The notes under the pieces are model-generated. The model did not search any database. It saw only the letters and a program-made list of their open reading frames with translations, and was not told where the DNA came from. From positions 2,338-66,337 of the IMG/VR virus record IMGVR_UViG_3300031111_000012: a stretch of 64,000 bases of DNA; one strand, written 5' to 3'. A program made the translations under genes and the position numbers. How positions within the stretch are numbered: the stretch's first letter is position 1; each line of letters starts with the position of its first letter. This DNA comes from a virus. This document shows, piece by piece, positions 3,946 through 15,844 of this stretch.

Positions 3946-4833
3946 TCAGTGACTCCGCATGATACCTATTGCAGCCTCAAGCATTGGGTTAAGCTCGATG
4001 CCAAACTTATTTAGAAATACGCCTACCTTTCTAGTTAATACGCCGCGCTTAGGCAGCTCAGGTATCCTTAACTTATCGGTACCAGCTATGAAGTGCACAG
4101 GGGGTGGGAGTGCAGCTAAGGGCAGGTTGAATTCAACCAGGTCCCAGTTATCAAGTATCTTCTGTCCGCGCTTTGACTTGAGGCATGCAGCGGTATCAGT
4201 TATGTACTGAATTGCAGTCTTCTCCCCTACCCCATCGATACCCTTTAACCCGTTGTGCCCTCCTGTTATTGCTTGAACAAGAGGCCATTGACTTGGGTCA
4301 AGGTCCTGGTAATCTCTTTTGAAGGTGGCAATGGTATAGGGCTTTCTCGTACCCCTGGGACCTCCTCCTTTCATCATGTACACCTTGTCGTTAAGCAGAG
4401 AGTACAAGTCAGAATCGTTAGCTCCTATTGCAACCTCCTCAAACTCGTGCTGGTGATTGAGCGCTAGTAGTGCCGCAATGTCGTCAGCCTCAAGTCCCGG
4501 GATGCCAAGGTAGCGAATACCTGCAATATCCATAAACTCAGCGCCGGCCTTTTTACCGATGGCGATTGAGGCCCCCAACCACTCATCCATAGGCTCCTTT
4601 GATCGTGATTCCTTGTACTGTGGATATACCAAGGACCGTGCATAGGGTTTGGTATCCAAGCAGACAACAGTGACTCGCGGCTTAACTTGCACCACGAGGT
4701 TTGCAAGCTGCATAAGGAACCCGTACAGGGCTCCCGTGGGTTTGTTGTTATGAGATAGCAGCTTGTTAACGTGGGCAGCTTTGTGCAGTAAGCTGCTGAA
4801 GTCAACCAGCAATAGGGTCCTGTTGGTAATCAT
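3946..4833 (-). CDS. 5'-3' exonuclease / flap endonuclease (PolI 5' nuclease, T5 D15-like)
   Basis: LLLVD, YPQYKESR, GLEADD, NDSDL and H3TH GIDGVGEKTA motifs. Confidence 0.9.
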   Translation of the reverse strand: MITNRTLLLVDFSSLLHKAAHVNKLLSHNNKPTGALYGFLMQLANLVVQVKPRVTVVCLDTKPYARSLVYPQYKESRSKEPMDEWLGASIAIGKKAGAEFMDIAGIRYLGIPGLEADDIAALLALNHQHEFEEVAIGANDSDLYSLLNDKVYMMKGGGPRGTRKPYTIATFKRDYQDLDPSQWPLVQAITGGHNGLKGIDGVGEKTAIQYITDTAACLKSKRGQKILDNWDLVEFNLPLAALPPPVHFIAGTDKLRIPELPKRGVLTRKVGVFLNKFGIELNPMLEAAIGIMRSH

Positions 4834-5696
4834 TGCGGACCCTCGTTGTAGGGAACCTCCTTGGTAAAGTCAAAGCCCCTGTCCTCTTCATCACGGAACC
4901 TTACTGAGGGCGCCTTCTCTGAGGATTCCTCAAAGATATACTTATGCGCCTGAATGTTTACCCCGATTCCGAGCGAGGTAAGTCCCCATCCTCCCCTGCA
5001 GGACTTCAAGTAGTGAAAAATGGCAGCAGGAGTAAGCTCTCCCCCATGCACCGGGGAAACAAAGCAACGCACCCCAGGGTTGTGGTACACGTTACGAATA
5101 ACGTTAACAACGGAGATCGCATCCTCAAGCTCCTCTTGTGAGGCTACTACAAACTTGATTGCATCCCGATCGTCGGTATCTACGAGTATGCTTTTACTTA
5201 CCTGGCCCTGCAGCACCCCGGAAGAGGGCATCTTGTAATCAGCAATGATCGACAACGGGAACCGCATTGAGTTGCGGTAAGCGATCAAAGGACCCACGTC
5301 ATGGGTACCAGAGGTCTCAATGCTTACAGGAGCCTCAAGGTAGTTCCACAGTGAATTAACCAAGCGGTTAAACACAAGGCCACTTTGGTGCAGCGGCTCC
5401 CCTCCAGTTACAGTGGCCTTCACATTACCCCTAACCGCATGCGGAGGTACGAGCTGGTGTACCATCCCCATTATCTGCTCAACTGTGAGGTCCCGACCGC
5501 GGTTAAAGGACCAGCTGTATCCGGTATCGCACCAGGGGCAATGAACCCCGCACCCACCCAAGCGGATAAATACAGAAGGCTGCCCTTGACAAAAAGGCGG
5601 AGCTGTAACTTCCCCATCAATCGTGAGGAAGATAGAAAGTACCCGCAATTTATTTTCGGAGAGGCCCGGAAATTTAGTTCTGTCTATATCGTGCAT
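4830..5696 (-). CDS. queE: 7-carboxy-7-deazaguanine synthase (radical SAM)
   Basis: IFLTIDGE, FIRLGGCGVHCPWCDT (CxxxCxxC), VTGGEPL, IETSGT, DYKMPSS, IQAHKYI; queC and queD are in the same window. Confidence 0.9.
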   Translation of the reverse strand: MHDIDRTKFPGLSENKLRVLSIFLTIDGEVTAPPFCQGQPSVFIRLGGCGVHCPWCDTGYSWSFNRGRDLTVEQIMGMVHQLVPPHAVRGNVKATVTGGEPLHQSGLVFNRLVNSLWNYLEAPVSIETSGTHDVGPLIAYRNSMRFPLSIIADYKMPSSGVLQGQVSKSILVDTDDRDAIKFVVASQEELEDAISVVNVIRNVYHNPGVRCFVSPVHGGELTPAAIFHYLKSCRGGWGLTSLGIGVNIQAHKYIFEESSEKAPSVRFRDEEDRGFDFTKEVPYNEGPQ

Positions 5697-7459: not shown

Positions 7460-7987
7460 TTATCGTTGCACTTCCGCATAGGAGTTTGAGGTCTCCCAAA
7501 CTCGAACACGCGTGACTCTGATTGGTGAATATTCCTCCTCGCCTGCGGCTCTGTCCAAAAGCATCTGCACAGCCTTAAGGGCATATCGTGCATAGTTTTC
7601 CGCGGTGGTATTCCACGGGGTTACCAGGACCCGCTGTTGGTGCAGGGCTGCATTAAGGCTTACCGCAAGGCTTGCGACATGCGGATCCTTGTCCCAAATA
7701 ACCAGGGAGTGATCGAACACATCGAACACCGCTTCCTTGATTGCTGCCTTAAGGTCCCCGAAGTCAACCCCAATCCCTGGCGTGGGGCTTTCATCCGTGG
7801 TGCCATCAATGAACCCCACAGGAGCCTCAACCTCGATCTCCCACCGATAGCTGTGGCCGTGGATGTTGGCGCACTTCCCTTCGTAACAACCAAGTCGGTG
7901 CGCCGTTTCAGTTTCAACAACCTTGCAAACCCGTACGAACGGAGTATCGGCAAGATCGGTCGTTGCTAGCCTAAGCAAGCTATTCAT
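7460..7987 (-). CDS. queD: 6-carboxy-5,6,7,8-tetrahydropterin synthase
   Basis: ETAHRL, CANIHGHSY, VDFGDLK, FDHS, TTAEN, VWET motifs. Confidence 0.92.
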   Translation of the reverse strand: MNSLLRLATTDLADTPFVRVCKVVETETAHRLGCYEGKCANIHGHSYRWEIEVEAPVGFIDGTTDESPTPGIGVDFGDLKAAIKEAVFDVFDHSLVIWDKDPHVASLAVSLNAALHQQRVLVTPWNTTAENYARYALKAVQMLLDRAAGEEEYSPIRVTRVRVWETSNSYAEVQR

Positions 7988-8555
7988 CTTTAAGTCCTCT
8001 TAAGTAATCCCTGGTACGCTCCGCAACCCCCTCAGTAACATCGAGGGCCTCCATAAGGAACCCGTCACCATGGAGTTTCATCTTACCGCGTTCCTCCCAA
8101 GCAGTTCCTATTTGCCGGAGGACTTCAGGCTTTGTATGAATGAAAAAGGAAAGCACTGACCTAACTTGGTCATCAGGAGCCTCGTCCACAATATCCGATA
8201 AACTTTGGGAGTCCGTAACGACCACTTCAGGTACAGATACAGCGGTGTCTTCATCTGAGGCTAAGCTACTTTCGTAAACCAAGGATCGGCGGTGCTTATG
8301 CTTCCTAGCCAGGTTAGTAATGTGATTCTGCAATGCGGACTTGAAAAGCCCCATGAAGTGCTTTTGAGATGTGACGGTAGCCCGATAGGTATTCCGAACC
8401 CTCGCAAACACCAAGTAGGCCTCCTGCAATGCTTCCTCTAGGTCCTGGTACTCGTGCTTGATCCTCCAAAATTGGGAGCTAAGCAAATTTACTGCATAAC
8501 CCTTGATCGGACCTTCCCAAAGTATCAGAACAACTCGCTTCTTCTTACTACCCAT
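7980..8555 (-). CDS. Sigma-factor-like protein (sigma70 region 2-like)
   Basis: DLEEALQEAYLVF...FMGLFKSALQNHITNLARKH resembles ECF sigma region 2; region 4 not evident. Confidence 0.55.
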   Translation of the reverse strand: MGSKKKRVVLILWEGPIKGYAVNLLSSQFWRIKHEYQDLEEALQEAYLVFARVRNTYRATVTSQKHFMGLFKSALQNHITNLARKHKHRRSLVYESSLASDEDTAVSVPEVVVTDSQSLSDIVDEAPDDQVRSVLSFFIHTKPEVLRQIGTAWEERGKMKLHGDGFLMEALDVTEGVAERTRDYLRGLKDE

Positions 8556-9001: not shown

Positions 9002-10333
9002 TTAAACGATAATCCTGCCCTGCGCCTTCAGGTTGCGTACTTGCATGAGGAGCGAATCCAAAGCATCCCATGCCTCGTTTTCCTGATGGCGCCCCAAACC
9101 CCCACGCCGGAAGTTATTGTAGGTACTCGCGATACTGCTAAGCACCTGGCGGGCCTTCTTCTCACTGATAGCACCACCCTCAGTAATGGACTTGTTGAGC
9201 TTCACCCGCTTGGTACCGCTGCGCTGCTTAGCAACACTGCTAACCCGGCGGATGGGCAGCTTCCCATCTGCACTTGCTTGGGGTTCCGGATTGAGTTGCA
9301 GCGCAAGCCGGGCATCCTGCTCTGAGTGCTTGCCCTTGCATCCCTTCATAAGCTCCGGCAAGTCGGACAGCTGTACCTGGCCCTGGGCTACGGCCTCCGA
9401 AACCTTCGGGCTCGCAGCCATAAGCAGCAGCAACTCACGCGCCCTGGCTTGGGTGAGTCCAAGGTAGCCCGCTGCTTCCTTGAGTGGCATACCAGCGCTC
9501 TCTACTGAAGTGTGGAGGATGTGCGCAAGCTCCGCGGGGTGGTGGTGCTTGGCAGCAGCACGATAGGAAACGAGCCGCTGAATGTAGGCCGCTACCTCCA
9601 CGGGAAGCGGTTGGGGCTCACCATCAACATAGGGGCGTGTATCAACCCATGCCACCAGCGCAGGCACCCAGGGGTCCTTGGGAATCTTGCCAGCAGCCTT
9701 ACTTGCGGCACCATGCAAAGCGCGAAGGGTCCGCATGCCGTCGTACACATGCAGCGCCTCGACCCCCTTGGTCACCCGTGCCACGACAACGATCGGCTGC
9801 ATTACGCGCTGGAACTCTTCCCAGTTTTCCAACAGGAACCGCTCGTAGCTTTTCATGTCCCCCATATCGAAGCGCGGGTGCTCCGCTGCCGGTACGATAT
9901 CGCTCAAGTGAGCATGCAGCACCTTCTCCCCATGCTTTTCCTGCTTGAGGAGTGAAAGCTTCACTGAGCCCGTAGGGGAAAGCAGCACACCCGCACCGAG
10001 GTTCGACTGCTTTTTAGCCGGAGCCTTTTTGGTGGCCGCTTTCTTCTTGGCCGCTTTCTTTGCGACCTTCTTGGAGGTCTTGGCCGGCGCGGCAGTTGCC
10101 TTCCCCGAAAGGAGGTCGTCGATCAGGATTGAGGCAGTGTCCGCTCCGGAAGCAGCGACCTCCCCTAGCAGCCGTTGAGCCTCCCCGATTGCCGCCTTCA
10201 ATGCGTCCTTGTCTTTGCCGTCAACATTGGGCACCGCGCGGATAACAGCACCGCGCACCATGTTGTAACCAGCAATGCCCTTAGTTTCCAGTACCGTTTT
10301 AACTGTCGGTACCACAGTCTCTTTTTTAGACAT
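9002..10333 (-). CDS. ParB/Srx-like domain protein with Lys/Ala-rich region
   Basis: HPRFD...MQPIVVV...VYDGMRTLRAL resembles the ParB N-terminal domain; followed by an HTH-like LKEAAGYLGLT. Confidence 0.65.
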   Translation of the reverse strand: MSKKETVVPTVKTVLETKGIAGYNMVRGAVIRAVPNVDGKDKDALKAAIGEAQRLLGEVAASGADTASILIDDLLSGKATAAPAKTSKKVAKKAAKKKAATKKAPAKKQSNLGAGVLLSPTGSVKLSLLKQEKHGEKVLHAHLSDIVPAAEHPRFDMGDMKSYERFLLENWEEFQRVMQPIVVVARVTKGVEALHVYDGMRTLRALHGAASKAAGKIPKDPWVPALVAWVDTRPYVDGEPQPLPVEVAAYIQRLVSYRAAAKHHHPAELAHILHTSVESAGMPLKEAAGYLGLTQARARELLLLMAASPKVSEAVAQGQVQLSDLPELMKGCKGKHSEQDARLALQLNPEPQASADGKLPIRRVSSVAKQRSGTKRVKLNKSITEGGAISEKKARQVLSSIASTYNNFRRGGLGRHQENEAWDALDSLLMQVRNLKAQGRIIV

Positions 10334-10979
10334 TCGATGTCTCCTTGAATTGATACAGGATCTCCTGCACTTTGCTTAATGGAATTACGGCAGCGTGTTC
10401 CCTAACCTTCACTACCTTTGGGTTATTCATGCGGTCGCGCTCCGTTGATACAACCACGGTGCGGAATGCCTTGAGATAGAAGTCTCGCTGCGGGTTACTA
10501 GCGCCTCCAATTACCCACATCTGATAAGTAATGGTCTCCTGTTCACTCAGATGCTCTACCTCTTCGTGAACCTTCTTTAACCCGGAGTCCCTCTTCCCTG
10601 TCACTACTACTTTAGCGTTTGGGGATTCTGCAAGCCCTACATCCTCTAGGGGTACTCGCCAGCCGGATTCGTTGCCAACGTCACAGGTCCTGATCCCGCT
10701 ATGGGTGCTAAAGGTCCAGAAGTAAAGCTCACCGATCTCCTCATCCCTGAACTCTACGTCGAAGGTATGCTTACCCAAGCGCAGTACCCTCCCTATGCGC
10801 CACTTTTTGCGGCGTAGCGAACCAAAGCCCTGTGCGATTACGTAACACTCCTTAGGTAGCGTTGTAGGGCTTCCTAAGATAGGCAGGCGCCTTTTACTTA
10901 GCCGCTTTCGTGGGCTCTTCGGTTGCTGCTTCATTTTCAGCCTCCTTATTAATTTGTACCGTGGCATCGATCCGCTCAA
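10326..10979 (-). CDS. Hypothetical protein (true start probably downstream of 10979)
   Basis: Long ORF in the operon chain; stop overlaps next start. Confidence 0.6.
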   Translation of the reverse strand: MSGSMPRYKLIRRLKMKQQPKSPRKRLSKRRLPILGSPTTLPKECYVIAQGFGSLRRKKWRIGRVLRLGKHTFDVEFRDEEIGELYFWTFSTHSGIRTCDVGNESGWRVPLEDVGLAESPNAKVVVTGKRDSGLKKVHEEVEHLSEQETITYQMWVIGGASNPQRDFYLKAFRTVVVSTERDRMNNPKVVKVREHAAVIPLSKVQEILYQFKETSNV

Positions 10980-11130
10980 TACCCCAATCCTTGGGCGCTT
11001 GAATGCGGACGCGCGCGCTGTTCCTTGAGGTGCTGAGTAGCGTCACCGTAATCGGGCCAACGCTAAACCCTGCACCTACGCGGCGCCCCATTACGAGTGC
11101 CGTGAGTTGCTCATCTTGTTTGGTGTTCAC
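10894..11130 (-). CDS. csrA: CsrA/RsmA-family RNA-binding translational regulator homologue
   Basis: LVMGRRVGAGFSVGPITVTLLSTSRNSARVRIQAPKDWGIERI aligns by eye with CsrA [44 protein letters not shown]; the Arg44 equivalent is kept. Confidence 0.75.
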   Translation of the reverse strand: MNTKQDEQLTALVMGRRVGAGFSVGPITVTLLSTSRNSARVRIQAPKDWGIERIDATVQINKEAENEAATEEPTKAAK

Positions 11131-11133
11131 AAT

Positions 11134-11436
11134 CTATCGCCTCCTGATTCGATTGCGGTTTGAAGCCTTACTACCTTTGCGCTCCTCTCTGAGCTTCCTT
11201 CGGATCGCGCTCTTAGGCTTAAACACGTTTAAGTTTAATCGGATTTCGGGGCGCTCCTTAAGGCGGATCAATCCGCCAGAAGTAGCAACCATTATCGATC
11301 GGCCAGTACCGCTGGTACCCAGCTCCCGGGACAGGTCAATCGTTATTACCAACCGCTGCCCTACGCCTCTACCAACAACCTTAAAGGACATATTGCGTAC
11401 GTTGGGTTGGAACTCGTCACTGTCTCCGCTTGTCAT
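11134..11436 (-). CDS. Hypothetical protein
   Basis: RBS GAGGAGG; LVITIDLSRELGTSGTGRSIMVATSGG core, Arg-rich tail. Confidence 0.7.
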   Translation of the reverse strand: MTSGDSDEFQPNVRNMSFKVVGRGVGQRLVITIDLSRELGTSGTGRSIMVATSGGLIRLKERPEIRLNLNVFKPKSAIRRKLREERKGSKASNRNRIRRR

Positions 11437-11798
11437 TAACCCTCCTCAAAAATATAACCGAGGGACCTAAACCTACGCCTGCAATCAGGGCACCGACTGA
11501 TAAGCTCGTAAGCTGCGGAATCAGAATCCACCTTAGACTGCTCCACTTGCTTAGGTATTGGCGCGGGTGGGTGTAACTCAGGCAACGGACTGTTATGCGC
11601 GTAGCCTCTCCTTAACATCTCCCTCGTTAATACTTCATGCCTATCGTGGAGAGAGGAATACTCTAAGAGGCCTTTCTCAACAAACCCCAGCATAGAGATT
11701 CCGCTATTAATAGACCCTACAAACATATGCACTTCCACGTGCTCCCCCAACAGGTGCCTCCTGCATAAAACTTCGGGATCAATCATCCATAGCCTCAT
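11436..11798 (-). CDS. Pyrimidine-dimer DNA glycosylase / endonuclease V-like
   Basis: MRLWMIDPEVLCRRHLLGEHVE...LTREMLRRGYAHNSPL, typical of the Pyr_excise family. Confidence 0.8.
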   Translation of the reverse strand: MRLWMIDPEVLCRRHLLGEHVEVHMFVGSINSGISMLGFVEKGLLEYSSLHDRHEVLTREMLRRGYAHNSPLPELHPPAPIPKQVEQSKVDSDSAAYELISRCPDCRRRFRSLGYIFEEG

Positions 11799-11824
11799 AG
11801 GTACCCACCTCTAACTAAAGTGCC

Positions 11825-11977
11825 CTATAGCAATACGCTTACTGCAGTGAAAACGATTACTCCTGCTATCAGCTCCGCATAGGTTGCTGCTTTACCCTTG
11901 AGCTTCCCCAACGCGAGTACGGCAGCAAGTGCAAACAGAAGTGCAGCCCCTGCCCCTACAACGATTCCGGTACTCAT
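11825..11977 (-). CDS. 50-aa two-TM membrane protein (below track cut-off)
   Basis: MSTGIVVGAGAALLFALAAVLALGKLKGKAATYAELIAGVIVFTAVSVLL, strong RBS AGAGGAGG. Confidence 0.7.
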   Translation of the reverse strand: MSTGIVVGAGAALLFALAAVLALGKLKGKAATYAELIAGVIVFTAVSVLL

Positions 11978-12005
11978 GGTTTATTTCCTCCTCTAAACGT
12001 AATTG

Positions 12006-12290
12006 TTAGAACACAAAGTCACTGGGTCCTGATGGCCGTACCCTTACGCAAATACCTGGGTCCGTATGCTGAACCTCTAGCGCAAGGAGCGTTGCAGGCC
12101 ACTGATGTAGGCCTCGCTCGTAGCACTCCTCCTGGTGCCTAACCTCTCCCTCGGGAATTACACCGCAGTAAAGGCTTATCGGGTCGATTTCAGGTACATC
12201 ACGATAAACCTCCATTTGGTGAAACTCGTGAAGCACATCCCTTAGGGAGCACTGTATGCAGCCATCATGCGTTATCGTAATATGTGTCAT
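12006..12290 (-). CDS. Small early hypothetical protein (N-terminus shared with 12812..13000)
   Basis: MTHITITHDG vs MSHITITNDG; RBS GAGAGG. Confidence 0.7.
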   Translation of the reverse strand: MTHITITHDGCIQCSLRDVLHEFHQMEVYRDVPEIDPISLYCGVIPEGEVRHQEECYERGLHQWPATLLALEVQHTDPGICVRVRPSGPSDFVF

Positions 12291-12310
12291 TACTTGCTTC
12301 CTCTCAATAA

Positions 12311-12337
12311 GGTGGGGCGCCGGTAGGACGCCCCACC
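12311..12337 (-). terminator. Intergenic hairpin / terminator
   Basis: ggtggggcg...cgccccacc inverted repeat followed by ttatt on the minus strand. Confidence 0.5.
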
Positions 12338-12363
12338 AGTTACGGTAGGCTAATGCCGCGGGC

Positions 12364-12717
12364 TTAGTCGGCCAGCTTCACCTCACCCTTAAGCCAATCA
12401 TAACGACTGATCTGCTTTTGCATGTAGCTGGGCACCTCGTGCTCAACCCGACCGCTGTACTCATCGATCAGCAAACCCACCTTGTTGAGGTAGTTGCGGG
12501 CGCGGGTATCGTTGCGCTTGCCATTGAAGGGAACCATACCGGCGTCGCGCATATGGCACAGGATATCGAACAGGCCCTGCAGGTGTTCCTTGTTCCACTT
12601 GTGACTGTCTGCAGGCAGCTTCACCATCGGCAGACTACCACGTGAGGCAGAACGGCGGCTACGAGCGCGGGTAGAACGGGTGGTTTTGTTTGCACGTTTT
12701 GCAGTAGACTTTTTCAT
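12364..12717 (-). CDS. Early hypothetical protein, paralogue of 13279..13557, with Arg-rich N-tail
   Basis: Start at MKKSTAKR after GAGAGGACGCAAAG; shared WNxExLQxLxDxxCHxRDxxMVPF...NKVGL core. Confidence 0.8.
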   Translation of the reverse strand: MKKSTAKRANKTTRSTRARSRRSASRGSLPMVKLPADSHKWNKEHLQGLFDILCHMRDAGMVPFNGKRNDTRARNYLNKVGLLIDEYSGRVEHEVPSYMQKQISRYDWLKGEVKLAD

Positions 12718-12811
12718 CTTTGCGTCCTCTCTTTTAGAGATTGAAAAGGCCACGACATTGTGACCGCATAGCGCACTACCTAAGGAATGCGCTATAGGGT
12801 TCGTGATGCCG

Positions 12812-13000
12812 TTAAGCTCCTGGGTGCTCCTCTACAGTCCTGAACCGAATCTTTAGATCACGGCAGTTATACATAAACCTGCCCCTAGCGGTATCGATAG
12901 CGTCCTGCTTATTATCGGTGTAGTAAGCTGATTCCTCCCTGCCATCAGGAGCAGGCACCCGGTAGTCGTAACCATCGTTAGTTATCGTGATATGAGACAT
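12812..13000 (-). CDS. Small early hypothetical protein
   Basis: Preceded by the repeated leader CTGAGAGGACGCAGCT. Confidence 0.7.
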   Translation of the reverse strand: MSHITITNDGYDYRVPAPDGREESAYYTDNKQDAIDTARGRFMYNCRDLKIRFRTVEEHPGA

Positions 13001-13012
13001 AGCTGCGTCCTC

Positions 13013-13204
13013 TCAGTCTGCGTAAAGTACCGAACCATCCTCATCGAAGTGGTAATGGTACAAGTCTGTTTTCTCACCAGGGTAGGGCTCACGGCCATAA
13101 AACAACCTGACCGCTTCCTGTTCCTGATCCCCCATCGATGACCAAACTCTACCGCCAGGGGCGTGCGCGTGGAGGTCAATTAATACAGTGGTTGCGTTGC
13201 TCAT
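13013..13204 (-). CDS. Small early hypothetical protein
   Basis: Preceded by the repeated leader GAGAGGACGCAAAG. Confidence 0.7.
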   Translation of the reverse strand: MSNATTVLIDLHAHAPGGRVWSSMGDQEQEAVRLFYGREPYPGEKTDLYHYHFDEDGSVLYAD

Positions 13205-13278
13205 CTTTGCGTCCTCTCAAAGTGCTACGCCCCTGAGCTATCAGGGGCGCAATAGAGTTAGTGTGTAGCTGTTAAGCC

Positions 13279-13557
13279 TTAGGCTTGCAGCTCCCAGGTG
13301 TACTGGCCGATTTTGCTGGCGATATACTGAGGAAGCCTCAGGGTAACCGGCTTGTCGTAGTTGTCCAGCATCAGGCCTACCTTGTTAATGAAGTACTCCC
13401 CACGGCGCTTGTTACGAGCGCAGAAAGGTACCATTGCGTGGTCGCGCAGGTGGCACATTGCATCGTAAAGGCTTTGCAGCTGTTCACGATTCCAACTACC
13501 TCCAGACTTACCAAAGGTCAGGGTTTTTGCTTGCACGTTGTTGGTTTGCTTTTTCAT
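13279..13557 (-). CDS. Early hypothetical protein, paralogue of 12364..12717
   Basis: Start at MKKQTNN after GAGGATATGAAG; shared core sequence. Confidence 0.8.
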   Translation of the reverse strand: MKKQTNNVQAKTLTFGKSGGSWNREQLQSLYDAMCHLRDHAMVPFCARNKRRGEYFINKVGLMLDNYDKPVTLRLPQYIASKIGQYTWELQA

Positions 13558-13628
13558 CTTCATATCCTCAATAAAAATGTTTTGATCAATCAAGCAGCGC
13601 TCCGAAGAGCGCTGCAGGTTTGTGGTTA

Positions 13629-13913
13629 TCACTCACCCGACGGGAGCTGATCCGCCAGTACCTCGTTGAACTCCTTGGAAGTTTCCAGGGTTACTGATAC
13701 CAGCACCTCCCCGTACCGCTCGTCATTATAGGACAACTCAACGTCCTCAATGATTTTGATTGCCTTGAGTCCCGTTTCACGAAAATCAGAAGCAACGTCC
13801 ATCAGGTCCTTGTCCTTCCACTCAGCACTCTCGGCGAAGTCAATCACGTCGCCGTTTTCCATAAGCACCTGACCCTTAGTGATTTCCAAATTACCGATAA
13901 GCATGACTTTCAT
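13629..13913 (-). CDS. Acidic early hypothetical protein (first gene after the long leader)
   Basis: Preceded by CTGAGAGGACGCAGCT; 94 aa, Asp/Glu-rich. Confidence 0.75.
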   Translation of the reverse strand: MKVMLIGNLEITKGQVLMENGDVIDFAESAEWKDKDLMDVASDFRETGLKAIKIIEDVELSYNDERYGEVLVSVTLETSKEFNEVLADQLPSGE

Positions 13914-13919
13914 AGCTGC

Positions 13920-14565
13920 GTCCTCTCAGTTGTTTAAGCACAGTGTGGGAACCCTCTCCTCTAAGAAGGCTCCCTACTGCACTCAATACAGCAAGCTGCC
14001 TGCATCCTCCAATGCTTAGCGTTAGCTTGCTGCATGAGTGAGTCCTTGTGGGCCTATATCCTTGGCCCTACTACATTGTCCCCTTTACCGACGTTATGCC
14101 GCGCCGTTCGGTCGCTGCTGTCATTAAGCTTTATAAGCTGCGTTAGCCATCTGTCACCTGGCTAAGCAAAGCTCACACATTGAAGTTACCCAAAAGCTTG
14201 CGCTTGAGGTCGTCGGTTGCATTTAAGCTAGAGCGTTTGCAGCTCGTACCCGATCAATAGTGCTGACTGTCCTTCCGGACTCCCTGCCACTCAGCGCCGT
14301 TGAGGTTTACCTGAATGTCCCGCTAGCTTGAGTCGGTATGTTGCAGCTCGATTTCCTATTAAGCTGCTTACCGGTGGAGGTTGCATTTAAGCTAGAGCGT
14401 TTGCAGCTCGTACCCTCTTCCTTCAAGCCATTGGGGATTTAAGCTCCTCAATGCAGCTAGCTGTTCAGTGGCATCTAAGCGAGCCCTGTTCGGGCGTTCC
14501 TGACAGCTACTTTGCTGAATTCTCCGGCCCCTTCCTGGAGCGCTTCCTTGCTGTACATCCTGTAC
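13920..14565 (-). ncRNA. Candidate structured leader / CsrB-like GGA-rich RNA
   Basis: No convincing CDS; lies downstream of a sigma70-type promoter; about 20 GGA by manual count, several in hairpin loops. Confidence 0.4.
14215..14415. repeat. Perfect 37-bp direct repeat (14215-14251 and 14379-14415)
   Basis: ggttgcatttaagctagagcgtttgcagctcgtaccc occurs twice, 127 bp apart; partial copy ttgcagctcg at 14341. Confidence 0.95.
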
Positions 14566-14569
14566 CATC

Positions 14570-14599
14570 ATTATATGCAATGATTTTACACAATGTAAA
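14570..14599 (-). promoter_or_regulatory. Sigma70-type early promoter
   Basis: Minus strand TTTACA-N18-TATAAT with an A/T-rich UP-like tract upstream. Confidence 0.7.
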
Positions 14600-14695
14600 G
14601 TTTTTTAACTTGTTGTTTTTACTAGGAAAATTTGCTCGAAATAGGTACTTTAGGTAGGAGTTTTGCAGATTTTTCCGGCTTCCTAGCTCCCTGAA

Positions 14696-15268
14696 TCAAA
14701 ATTTTCCTTTACCTCCAGGAGGTAAGATTTTCGGGCTTCCTCGCTCAAGCAGCACATCCAGTAAGCCGGACTGCAGGTACCCAGGATAGGCATGGTCAAC
14801 TAAGCTTGCGGTTTTGATGTAGCCCTCAAGCAGTGTACGAAGCGTTACCGGTACCCTAGCATTCTGCAGGTAGTCAACAACAACAACGCCCGCAAGCTTT
14901 GCAAGCCGCTGAAAGTTTGCCTGATTGAATAACGAGGATTCCTCAAGCAGCACCTTAAGTGATCTCGCTGCTTTGGCTAACGACTGTTTATCCCTGGAAG
15001 GAAGATAAGAAGCTCTCACACGCCCAACCGCGATTCCTGCATCTATGAGAGTGTTCTCTGCTTGATCAAGCAACAGGTCCGCAAGTGTATCCACACTCCG
15101 CTGCCGTCGCTGATTACCAGAGCCCTGTACTTCGTTGTCCTTAGCGACTGCCCCTTGCTGCTTAAGCAGTGCAATGAGTAGCCCCTTCTCTTCGGAGCTA
15201 AGCTCAGGCAGCAGGGCCTGCACCGTACTAAATGCTTTACTTGCCATGTTAACCCCTGCACTTTGCAA
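14696..15268 (-). CDS. Hypothetical protein
   Basis: 190-aa ORF in the minus-strand chain. Confidence 0.7.
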   Translation of the reverse strand: MQSAGVNMASKAFSTVQALLPELSSEEKGLLIALLKQQGAVAKDNEVQGSGNQRRQRSVDTLADLLLDQAENTLIDAGIAVGRVRASYLPSRDKQSLAKAARSLKVLLEESSLFNQANFQRLAKLAGVVVVDYLQNARVPVTLRTLLEGYIKTASLVDHAYPGYLQSGLLDVLLERGSPKILPPGGKGKF

Positions 15269-15574: not shown

Positions 15575-15844
15575 TTAGATAAAGGCTGGTTGTTGCTTCC
15601 TTTCTTCACAGATGGAGTTGAACAAGGTCAAGTTCATATCTCCTTCCTTACCGTGTTTCTTTGCCCACAGCAGTACTGTGGTAGCTTCAAACCTTACGAT
15701 GCTAATCTTATTCACTTTCTGCCTGGTAGCCTCGAGTCCCTTTTCCTTTTCCCAGTTATCAATCGAGGTCCTTGATACCGAAAAAATTTGCATCAGGTCT
15801 GAGGTTGTCAACCAAGCCCTTTTGTTGCGCTTCTTACCCATCAT
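15575..15844 (-). CDS. Winged-HTH DNA-binding protein (MerR/excisionase/Nu1-like)
   Basis: WLTTSDLMQIFSVSRTSIDNWEKEKGL; RBS AGGAGG. Confidence 0.7.
   Translation of the reverse strand: MMGKKRNKRAWLTTSDLMQIFSVSRTSIDNWEKEKGLEATRQKVNKISIVRFEATTVLLWAKKHGKEGDMNLTLFNSICEERKQQPAFI

Follow-up and report, generated by a model that had tools for sequence, protein, structure and literature searches.

The virus record IMGVR_UViG_3300031111_000012 of IMG/VR carries, ahead of a run of small early genes, a non-coding region of about 650 nucleotides (nt) in which GGA is the most over-exposed of all trinucleotides, and the same run of genes includes a divergent member of the CsrA family. Both were analysed within a window of 64,000 nt (positions 2,338 to 66,337 of the record), to which the coordinates below refer. 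Together they make a virus-borne control loop of the Csr type plausible. The reading preferred here, which is a tentative one, is that the region would form a CsrA-controlled 5' leader of the early operon and not a dedicated CsrA sponge. The elements in question are as follows.

14570-14599, minus strand: promoter TTTACA-N18-TATAAT, an 11/12 match to sigma-70
13914-14563, minus strand: structured non-coding leader of the early operon, about 650 nt, with 20 GGA
14490-14566, minus strand: 5'-terminal cluster of five GGA, including CAGGAUG, AAGGAAG, CAGGAAG and CAGGAAC
14553-14565, minus strand: hairpin GUACA-GGA-UGUAC, with an unpaired probability of 0.49 for its GGA
14269-14280, minus strand: hairpin GUCC-GGAA-GGAC, a tetraloop, with an unpaired probability of 0.93
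14050-14068, minus strand: hairpin GGGCC-AAGGAUAUA-GGCCC, with an unpaired probability of 0.94
13939-14040, minus strand: two long hairpins that close the leader just before the first ribosome-binding site
10894-11130, minus strand: divergent CsrA-family gene, 78 amino acids (aa), GTG start

The promoter proposed in an initial annotation of this DNA is present at 14599-14570 on the minus strand. In a scan of positions 1-60000, 25 promoter-like sites were obtained, no more than in shuffled sequences. The other 24 all match at 9/12, so that this is the only site above that score in 60 kb. An A/T-rich tract (14600-14620), read from the sequence, lies directly upstream of the -35 box, and the spacing (7 nt after the -10 box) would place the transcription start near 14563. 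The promoter is surrounded by inverted sequences.

14551-14600: 50-bp dyad around the promoter, with 22-nt arms that are 77% complementary and 6 nt apart
14587-14597: TACA-N3-TGTA palindrome of the dyad, over the -35 box
14554-14564: TACA-N3-TGTA palindrome of the dyad, at +1 and 33 bp from the other

This palindrome occurs four times in the window against 0.74 +/- 0.82 expected, a number reached by none of 100 shuffles, and the remaining two copies fall in coding sequence. The two copies in the dyad are candidate operators, and the promoter is probably controlled by a repressor.

Between the -10 box and the first ATG (13913) lie 656 nt, with no minus-strand open reading frame (ORF) of more than 62 aa. 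A codon-usage signal is absent in every frame from about 13990 to 14800 and present in all flanking genes. The leader is the longest of five gaps of at least 150 nt lacking a minus-strand ORF of at least 45 aa. The ORF list and the codon usage thus bear out the proposal of some 650 nt without a credible coding sequence. Small ORFs inside the leader were considered and rejected, having neither a Shine-Dalgarno (SD) sequence nor a coding signal. The leader folds strongly, with a z of -3.7 for the sense strand and of -1.9 for the antisense strand. No terminator-like site was found on the minus strand in 13914-14570, and the leader continues directly into the first ribosome-binding site. The two long hairpins that precede this site are a possible processing site.

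The leader contains exactly 20 GGA in 652 nt. The figure of about 20 given in the initial annotation was therefore correct, but the expectation of about 10 set beside it ignored base composition: single-base frequencies predict 16.0 and dinucleotide shuffles give 13.1 +/- 2.7 (p ~0.01, 2000 shuffles), which leaves a modest excess. The excess is clearer for AGGA, with 13 copies where shuffles have 4.9 +/- 2.1 (p 0.0005). Windows of equal size from the same strand, largely coding sequence, average 6.7, and 2.8% of them reach 13. The four motifs of CsrB type named beforehand are all present. Within the first 77 nt, CAGGA[ACU] occurs three times, the maximum of the window (0.06% of windows), and [AC]AGGA four times (0.04% of windows), while five plain GGA in 77 nt are ordinary (2.7% of windows, with 58 such clusters on the strand).

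The exposure of GGA is the more distinctive property of the leader. The unpaired probabilities of its GGA in local folds sum to 8.5, compared with 3.9 +/- 1.15 in shuffles, none of 200 reaching this value, and with 3.6 +/- 1.65 in 98 native windows, of which one does. When the same sum was compared with dinucleotide shuffles for all 64 trinucleotides, GGA ranked first (z 4.57, or 5.26 with wider folding), followed by AGG, and AGA and AAA were under-exposed. GGA keeps the first rank after removal of the 5' 80 nt and the SD sequence (z 3.2). It also ranks first when the first half of the leader is taken alone, and third for the second half; its antisense rank is 41. The three hairpins named in the initial annotation, at 14553-14565, 14269-14280 and 14050-14068, all exist; the last of them, with its GGA in a hairpin loop of the minimum-free-energy fold, is the best CsrA-type loop of the leader. 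The proposed comparison of GGA in loops with shuffled sequence gave loops that are modest in number and above chance: hairpin loops of the minimum-free-energy fold contain 4 of the 20 GGA, whereas the mean is 1.1 +/- 1.1 for 150 shuffles and 1.0 for 49 native windows, with 2% of each set reaching four. In local folds, 6 of the 20 have an unpaired probability above 0.5. The GGA of the first SD sequence, at 13923, is unpaired with a probability of 0.90, and further exposed GGA are found at 14010, 14061, 14276, 14283 and 14356, while the sites of the 5' cluster are spaced by 10-25 nt. The leader thus has at least two GGA sites, one of them at the SD sequence, with spacings that a dimer can bridge, as in messenger RNA leaders regulated by CsrA.

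The CsrA-family gene lies on the same strand, 3.4 kb downstream of the promoter. Its product scores 25.4 bits with the Pfam CsrA family (PF02599), just below the cut-off of 27 (E 1.4e-5, with the same score in the genome search), and matches PHROG 9500, "CsrA-like regulator", at E 3e-5. Comparison with PDB sequences by phmmer gave 11 matches at E <=1, of which the best nine are CsrA, RsmA or RsmE proteins (top E 1.5e-5) and the last two beta-lactamases (E 0.57-0.58). An exhaustive search of 1.84 billion representatives gave a single relative, P0002 (78 aa, 52% identity, E 7e-9), besides an unrelated repeat protein at E 9e-4. P0002 is encoded on Logan contigs no longer than 5.2 kb. A profile built from the ORF and P0002 recovered nine of nine solved CsrA/Rsm sequences and no other protein, over residues 11-68 and with E 5.4e-10 at best. 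In the alignments to these proteins, an RR pair falls on the RR of strand 1, APKD on APKE and the arginine of IER on R44 (HRE), with W in place of V40 and M in place of L4. The R6/R7 pair and R44, in strands 1 and 5, are presumably the RNA-binding residues. A monomer model has five strands and is of moderate confidence, the predicted local distance difference test (pLDDT) being 66 for the whole chain and about 80 for its core. Foldseek with this model gave no match at E <=0.001, a CsrA chain appearing at rank 31 (E 0.77). Judged by its sequence, the ORF is a real, very divergent CsrA homologue, and the PDB matches and the two-sequence profile support the initial assignment of a CsrA/RsmA homologue to this run of genes.

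The ORF and P0002 also have in common an acidic C-terminal tail, EA(E/D)N(E/D)AATEE (10894-10940), which might serve as a partner-binding or self-inhibiting element. The next ORF (10326-10934) begins 41 nt within the 3' end of the CsrA-like gene, an overlap that suggests translational coupling. A neighbouring protein of 100 aa belongs to no known family and is not similar to the CsrA ORF.

Under the preferred reading of a CsrA-controlled leader, host RNA polymerase would start at the single strong sigma-70 promoter, within the 50-bp dyad that resembles a pair of repressor sites. An untranslated, highly folded leader of about 650 nt would be made first, and then the small takeover genes with their cassette-like ribosome-binding sites and, 3.4 kb downstream, the divergent CsrA-family protein, whose gene would be co-transcribed with them. 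CsrA-type dimers could bind some six to eight exposed (A)GGA sites, namely those of the 5' end, that of the first SD sequence and those displayed in loops, GGGCC-AAGGAUAUA-GGCCC for example. The binder would be the phage CsrA once it has accumulated, and possibly host CsrA at the start of infection. Binding may alter the translation, stability or read-through of the early transcript, with feedback on early expression as the presumed direction of regulation. Any titration of host CsrA would then be a by-product of high expression and not the job of a dedicated CsrB-like RNA. If CsrA binds the leader, this would be a compact and testable case of a virus applying Csr logic to its own early transcript, and a phage CsrA would have its first target. 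Because the promoter is near the Escherichia coli consensus, the parts could be tested in laboratory strains.

Several observations weigh against this reading. The GGA count is ordinary for the strand, the same-strand windows averaging 16.05 +/- 4.0 with 20.7% of them reaching 20, and just four of the 20 GGA lie in the hairpin loops of the minimum-free-energy fold. On the antisense strand, UCC has a z of 2.7, so that part of the GGA signal reflects the plain count and loops common to both strands. The region was picked because it looked rich in GGA, and the values therefore somewhat overstate the surprise, although the leader is the only long non-coding stretch in the window and few alternative regions could have been chosen. 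The strongest sequence features of the leader, an excess of AGCT and a 37-nt repeat, are unrelated to GGA. The hairpin at the predicted 5' end, proposed as close to the CsrA consensus, does exist, but it doubles as the +1 palindrome of the dyad, which offers an explanation at the DNA level, and its 5' arm may precede the transcription start: the full 5-bp stem requires a start at or before 14565, and a start at 14563 leaves three of the five pairs in the RNA. The 6 kb on each side of csrA were inspected in Dartukuta, phi297, 431E46.1 and F116, all unrelated to this phage. Ten intergenic stretches near csrA in these four held 0.24-2.2 GGA per 100 nt and no CAGGAH, with summed unpaired probabilities of 0.05-1.4, and none of the Csr/Rsm families of Rfam was found near csrA there. 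A leader displaying GGA is thus not a general companion of phage csrA. Two of these phages have an unannotated gap beside csrA, one of 413 nt in Vibrio phage 431E46.1 (5989-6401) and one of 478 nt in Bacillus phage Dartukuta (5263-5740), and the gaps are not rich in GGA.

A rival explanation is that the early leader is structured for reasons without a Csr link, such as stabilisation of the transcript, shielding from Rho or nucleases, or the provision of processing sites. The exposed AGGA would then be SD-like ribosome contacts or chance, and the phage CsrA would act on host mRNAs alone. The strong fold of the sense strand and the long hairpins right before the first ribosome-binding site agree with this view, as do the ordinary GGA count and the lack of GGA-rich leaders in the other csrA-bearing phages; AGGA is moreover the core of the SD sequence, and its exposure could serve binding of the 30S subunit. 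This explanation, considered somewhat unlikely, does not account for the fact that GGA, of all 64 trinucleotides, is the most over-exposed one throughout the leader of a phage that encodes CsrA. A dedicated sponge of the CsrB/RsmZ type appears quite improbable. Cleavage of the leader, for instance at the long terminal hairpins, would here yield a discrete RNA sequestering host CsrA early. This RNA would be made before all other phage transcripts and would probably exceed them in abundance, and the five GGA of its first 77 nt, with three CAGGA[ACU] of CsrB type, and the enriched exposure of GGA would suit such a role. Against this, only 4 to 6 GGA are well exposed, a terminator is missing and other motifs fill two thirds of the RNA. 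The Rfam model of CsrB gives the leader 10.9 bits (gathering score 71, E 1.7), and Rfam over the window produced no match at gathering score and only noise at E <=10. The density of sites is also several-fold under the figures for CsrB and CsrC in an excerpt of PMC4347634. The sponge form of the initial proposal is accordingly not upheld. The wider idea of a Csr circuit retains its other parts, namely the CsrA-family gene behind the only strong host-type promoter and the exposure of GGA. In its full form, in which the leader captures host CsrA early and the phage CsrA, made later from the same transcript, binds the leader and the cassette ribosome-binding sites and so turns off the early genes as a post-transcriptional early-to-middle timer, the self-contained circuit is considered improbable.

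The features unrelated to GGA raise the question of a DNA-level element. AGCT occurs 18 times in the leader against 3.1 +/- 2.2 per window, a six-fold excess and the maximum of the window (0.08% of windows). The 37-nt repeat is perfect and lacks GGA; its two copies, found nowhere else in the window, are the following.

14379-14415, minus strand: copy 1 of the 37-nt direct repeat
14215-14251, minus strand: copy 2, 164 nt from copy 1

Further motifs are AGCTTAA (five copies), GAGCTGCAA (three) and TGCAAC (three). An origin, iterons or operators in the largest intergenic region would account for the repeats as protein-binding sites (the 37-nt repeats, TGCAA(A)C and AGCTTAA motifs and the promoter dyad) and would make the RNA features secondary. 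This is regarded as unlikely. The AGCT excess, the perfect repeat unique to the region and the 50-bp dyad speak for it, yet the repeated motifs are all one-directional (AGCTTA 6 against TAAGCT 0, GCTGCAA 3 against 0, GAGCT 6 against AGCTC 0), which fits an RNA as well as direct DNA repeats. The GC skew has no switch at the region and is uninformative, no replication initiator was identified beside it, and a role in RNA would be compatible with such an element. A different decoy or regulatory RNA composed around the 37-nt repeats, for instance one that imitates a host defence RNA (CRISPR repeats or type III antitoxin repeats), is very improbable. Two identical units do stand directly behind the early promoter, but they are 164 nt apart and not in tandem, the leader has no tandem-repeat structure, and no Rfam match was obtained. 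Exact matches to a 24-nt core of the repeat were absent from 185,579 species genomes and from JGI metagenomes, a search that diverged copies would escape, and the 37-mer likewise had none in IMG/VR. Readings of the 37-mer as boxA/nut-like or as a phage promoter were dropped; AGCTTAAAT (<=1 mismatch) is not enriched elsewhere in the window (10 against 14.9 expected).

The genes behind the leader are small and mostly without known family, and several of them have similar ribosome-binding sites.

11134-13913, minus strand: nine small early ORFs
11436-11798, minus strand: DenV-like pyrimidine-dimer DNA glycosylase (Pfam E 1.5e-14)
13917-13927, 13208-13218, 13004-13014 and 12721-12731, minus strand: ribosome-binding-site cassettes of GAGAGGACGCA
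12295-12305, minus strand: variant of the same cassette, the fifth of the set

Four exact copies of GAGAGGACGCA and one with a single mismatch all lie in 12295-13927, and the portal gene contains a sixth hit, also with one mismatch. Six matches were reached in none of 100 shuffles, and the clustering is real. Two sub-types of the cassette extend to 20-21 nt, and the cassettes precede genes for unrelated proteins, often behind a GC-rich hairpin. The shared leaders bearing GGA that had been described for these genes are therefore present and clustered. GGA is part of any strong SD sequence, however, and with a single exception the other early genes examined have it there too, so the GGA of GAGAGGACGCA is not specific evidence for CsrA. 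The cassettes may equally well be recombination linkers between early ORFan genes, for which T4 offers a precedent, as a shared site of translational control. Two pairs of paralogous ORFans were observed among the early genes, 12364-12717 with 13279-13557 and 12006-12290 with 12812-13000. The members of one pair share 39% identity and have a basic N-terminus; those of the other have the N-terminus M(S/T)HITIT(N/H)DG in common. The first pair is without homologues beyond this genome.

The window covers nearly all of the 66,337-nt record, which is estimated to be 88% complete and has linear ends, and all long ORFs of the window are on the minus strand. Matches to PHROG families identify a tailed phage (portal, terminase, tape-measure and J-like tail proteins, DNA polymerase and helicases), whose portal protein shares no more than 33% identity with its counterpart in any cultured phage. 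Along the direction of transcription, the tail genes are followed by a terminator-like hairpin, three small genes (one of them for a helix-turn-helix protein), the promoter and the leader, and then by the roughly ten small ORFs, the CsrA-like gene and regulatory and replication genes.

15926-15901: terminator-like hairpin, 3' of the tail genes in transcription order
15575-15844: helix-turn-helix protein gene, just upstream of the promoter

The PHROG matches also include QueE-like and QueD-like genes and a weak sigma-factor-like protein (4830-5696, 7460-7987 and 7980-8555). The first two suggest 7-deazaguanine modification of the DNA, and the third could direct middle or late transcription. One marine-sediment DNA sequencing run, the likely source, contains the region, and no RNA run is listed. 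The contigs of this run are identical, without variants, and break at the 37-nt repeats. No relatives of the region were found by blastn among 50,697 phage records, nor by scanning IMG/VR for the 37-nt repeat and for three proteins, namely P0002, the portal protein and the product of the first early gene. The CsrA alignment likewise had no relatives in JGI metagenomes and GTDB genomes, and a word-index protein search returned the query itself as its sole match.

Some parallels exist with early control in well-known phages. T4 RegA is a translational repressor of early mRNAs that acts at ribosome-binding sites; like the role suggested for the phage CsrA, it represents early shut-off by an RNA-binding protein made by the phage, the protein family being unrelated. 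T4 has PeSL modules, and the early leader of T7 is processed by RNase III. These resemble the present region in having repeated stem-loop cassettes between early ORFans and a long leader ahead of the first gene. In contrast to PeSL, the cassette here is a hairpin with an 11-nt ribosome-binding site and not a promoter, and processing here is only a candidate.

Ordinary CsrA is encoded in 88 of the 50,697 phage records, and an excerpt of PMC7366521 lists csrA alleles in 30 of 2517 phage genomes (about 1%), their function being untested. As csrA is already recorded in other phage genomes, a phage csrA is not new in itself. RsmQ, described in an excerpt of PMC9928087, is a plasmid-borne regulator of the same family. 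Here too, the early or accessory genes of a mobile element include a CsrA-family regulator of its own; unlike the phage and plasmid alleles, the present protein is far more divergent and has a conserved acidic tail. No paper describing a phage RNA partner of a CsrA-type protein was found in the literature searches made.

As stated in part of PMC4347634, CsrB has 18 binding sequences and CsrC has 9, and CsrA prefers GGA in hairpin loops and competes at SD sequences. The leader resembles CsrB/CsrC and RsmX/Y/Z in being non-coding, in repeating motifs of the CAGGA(U/A/C) type and in having GGA in some of its loops. It differs from them in its far lower density of sites and in lacking a terminator and an Rfam match, and it is not a discrete gene and is dominated by unrelated AGCU-type motifs. 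Leaders of mRNAs regulated by CsrA include the 5' region of E. coli flhDC, shielded by CsrA from RNase E (PMC4347634, in part), the pgaA leader, remodelled by CsrA for Rho (PMC4052769, excerpt), and the 5' untranslated region of Xanthomonas hrpG (PMC3937308, excerpt). Long untranslated sequence, several GGA, sites at the SD sequence and near the 5' end and some loops are common to these and to the present leader. The phage leader is much longer than the flhDC, pgaA and hrpG leaders (about 650 nt), is viral, and stands at the head of a predicted operon that itself encodes a CsrA homologue.

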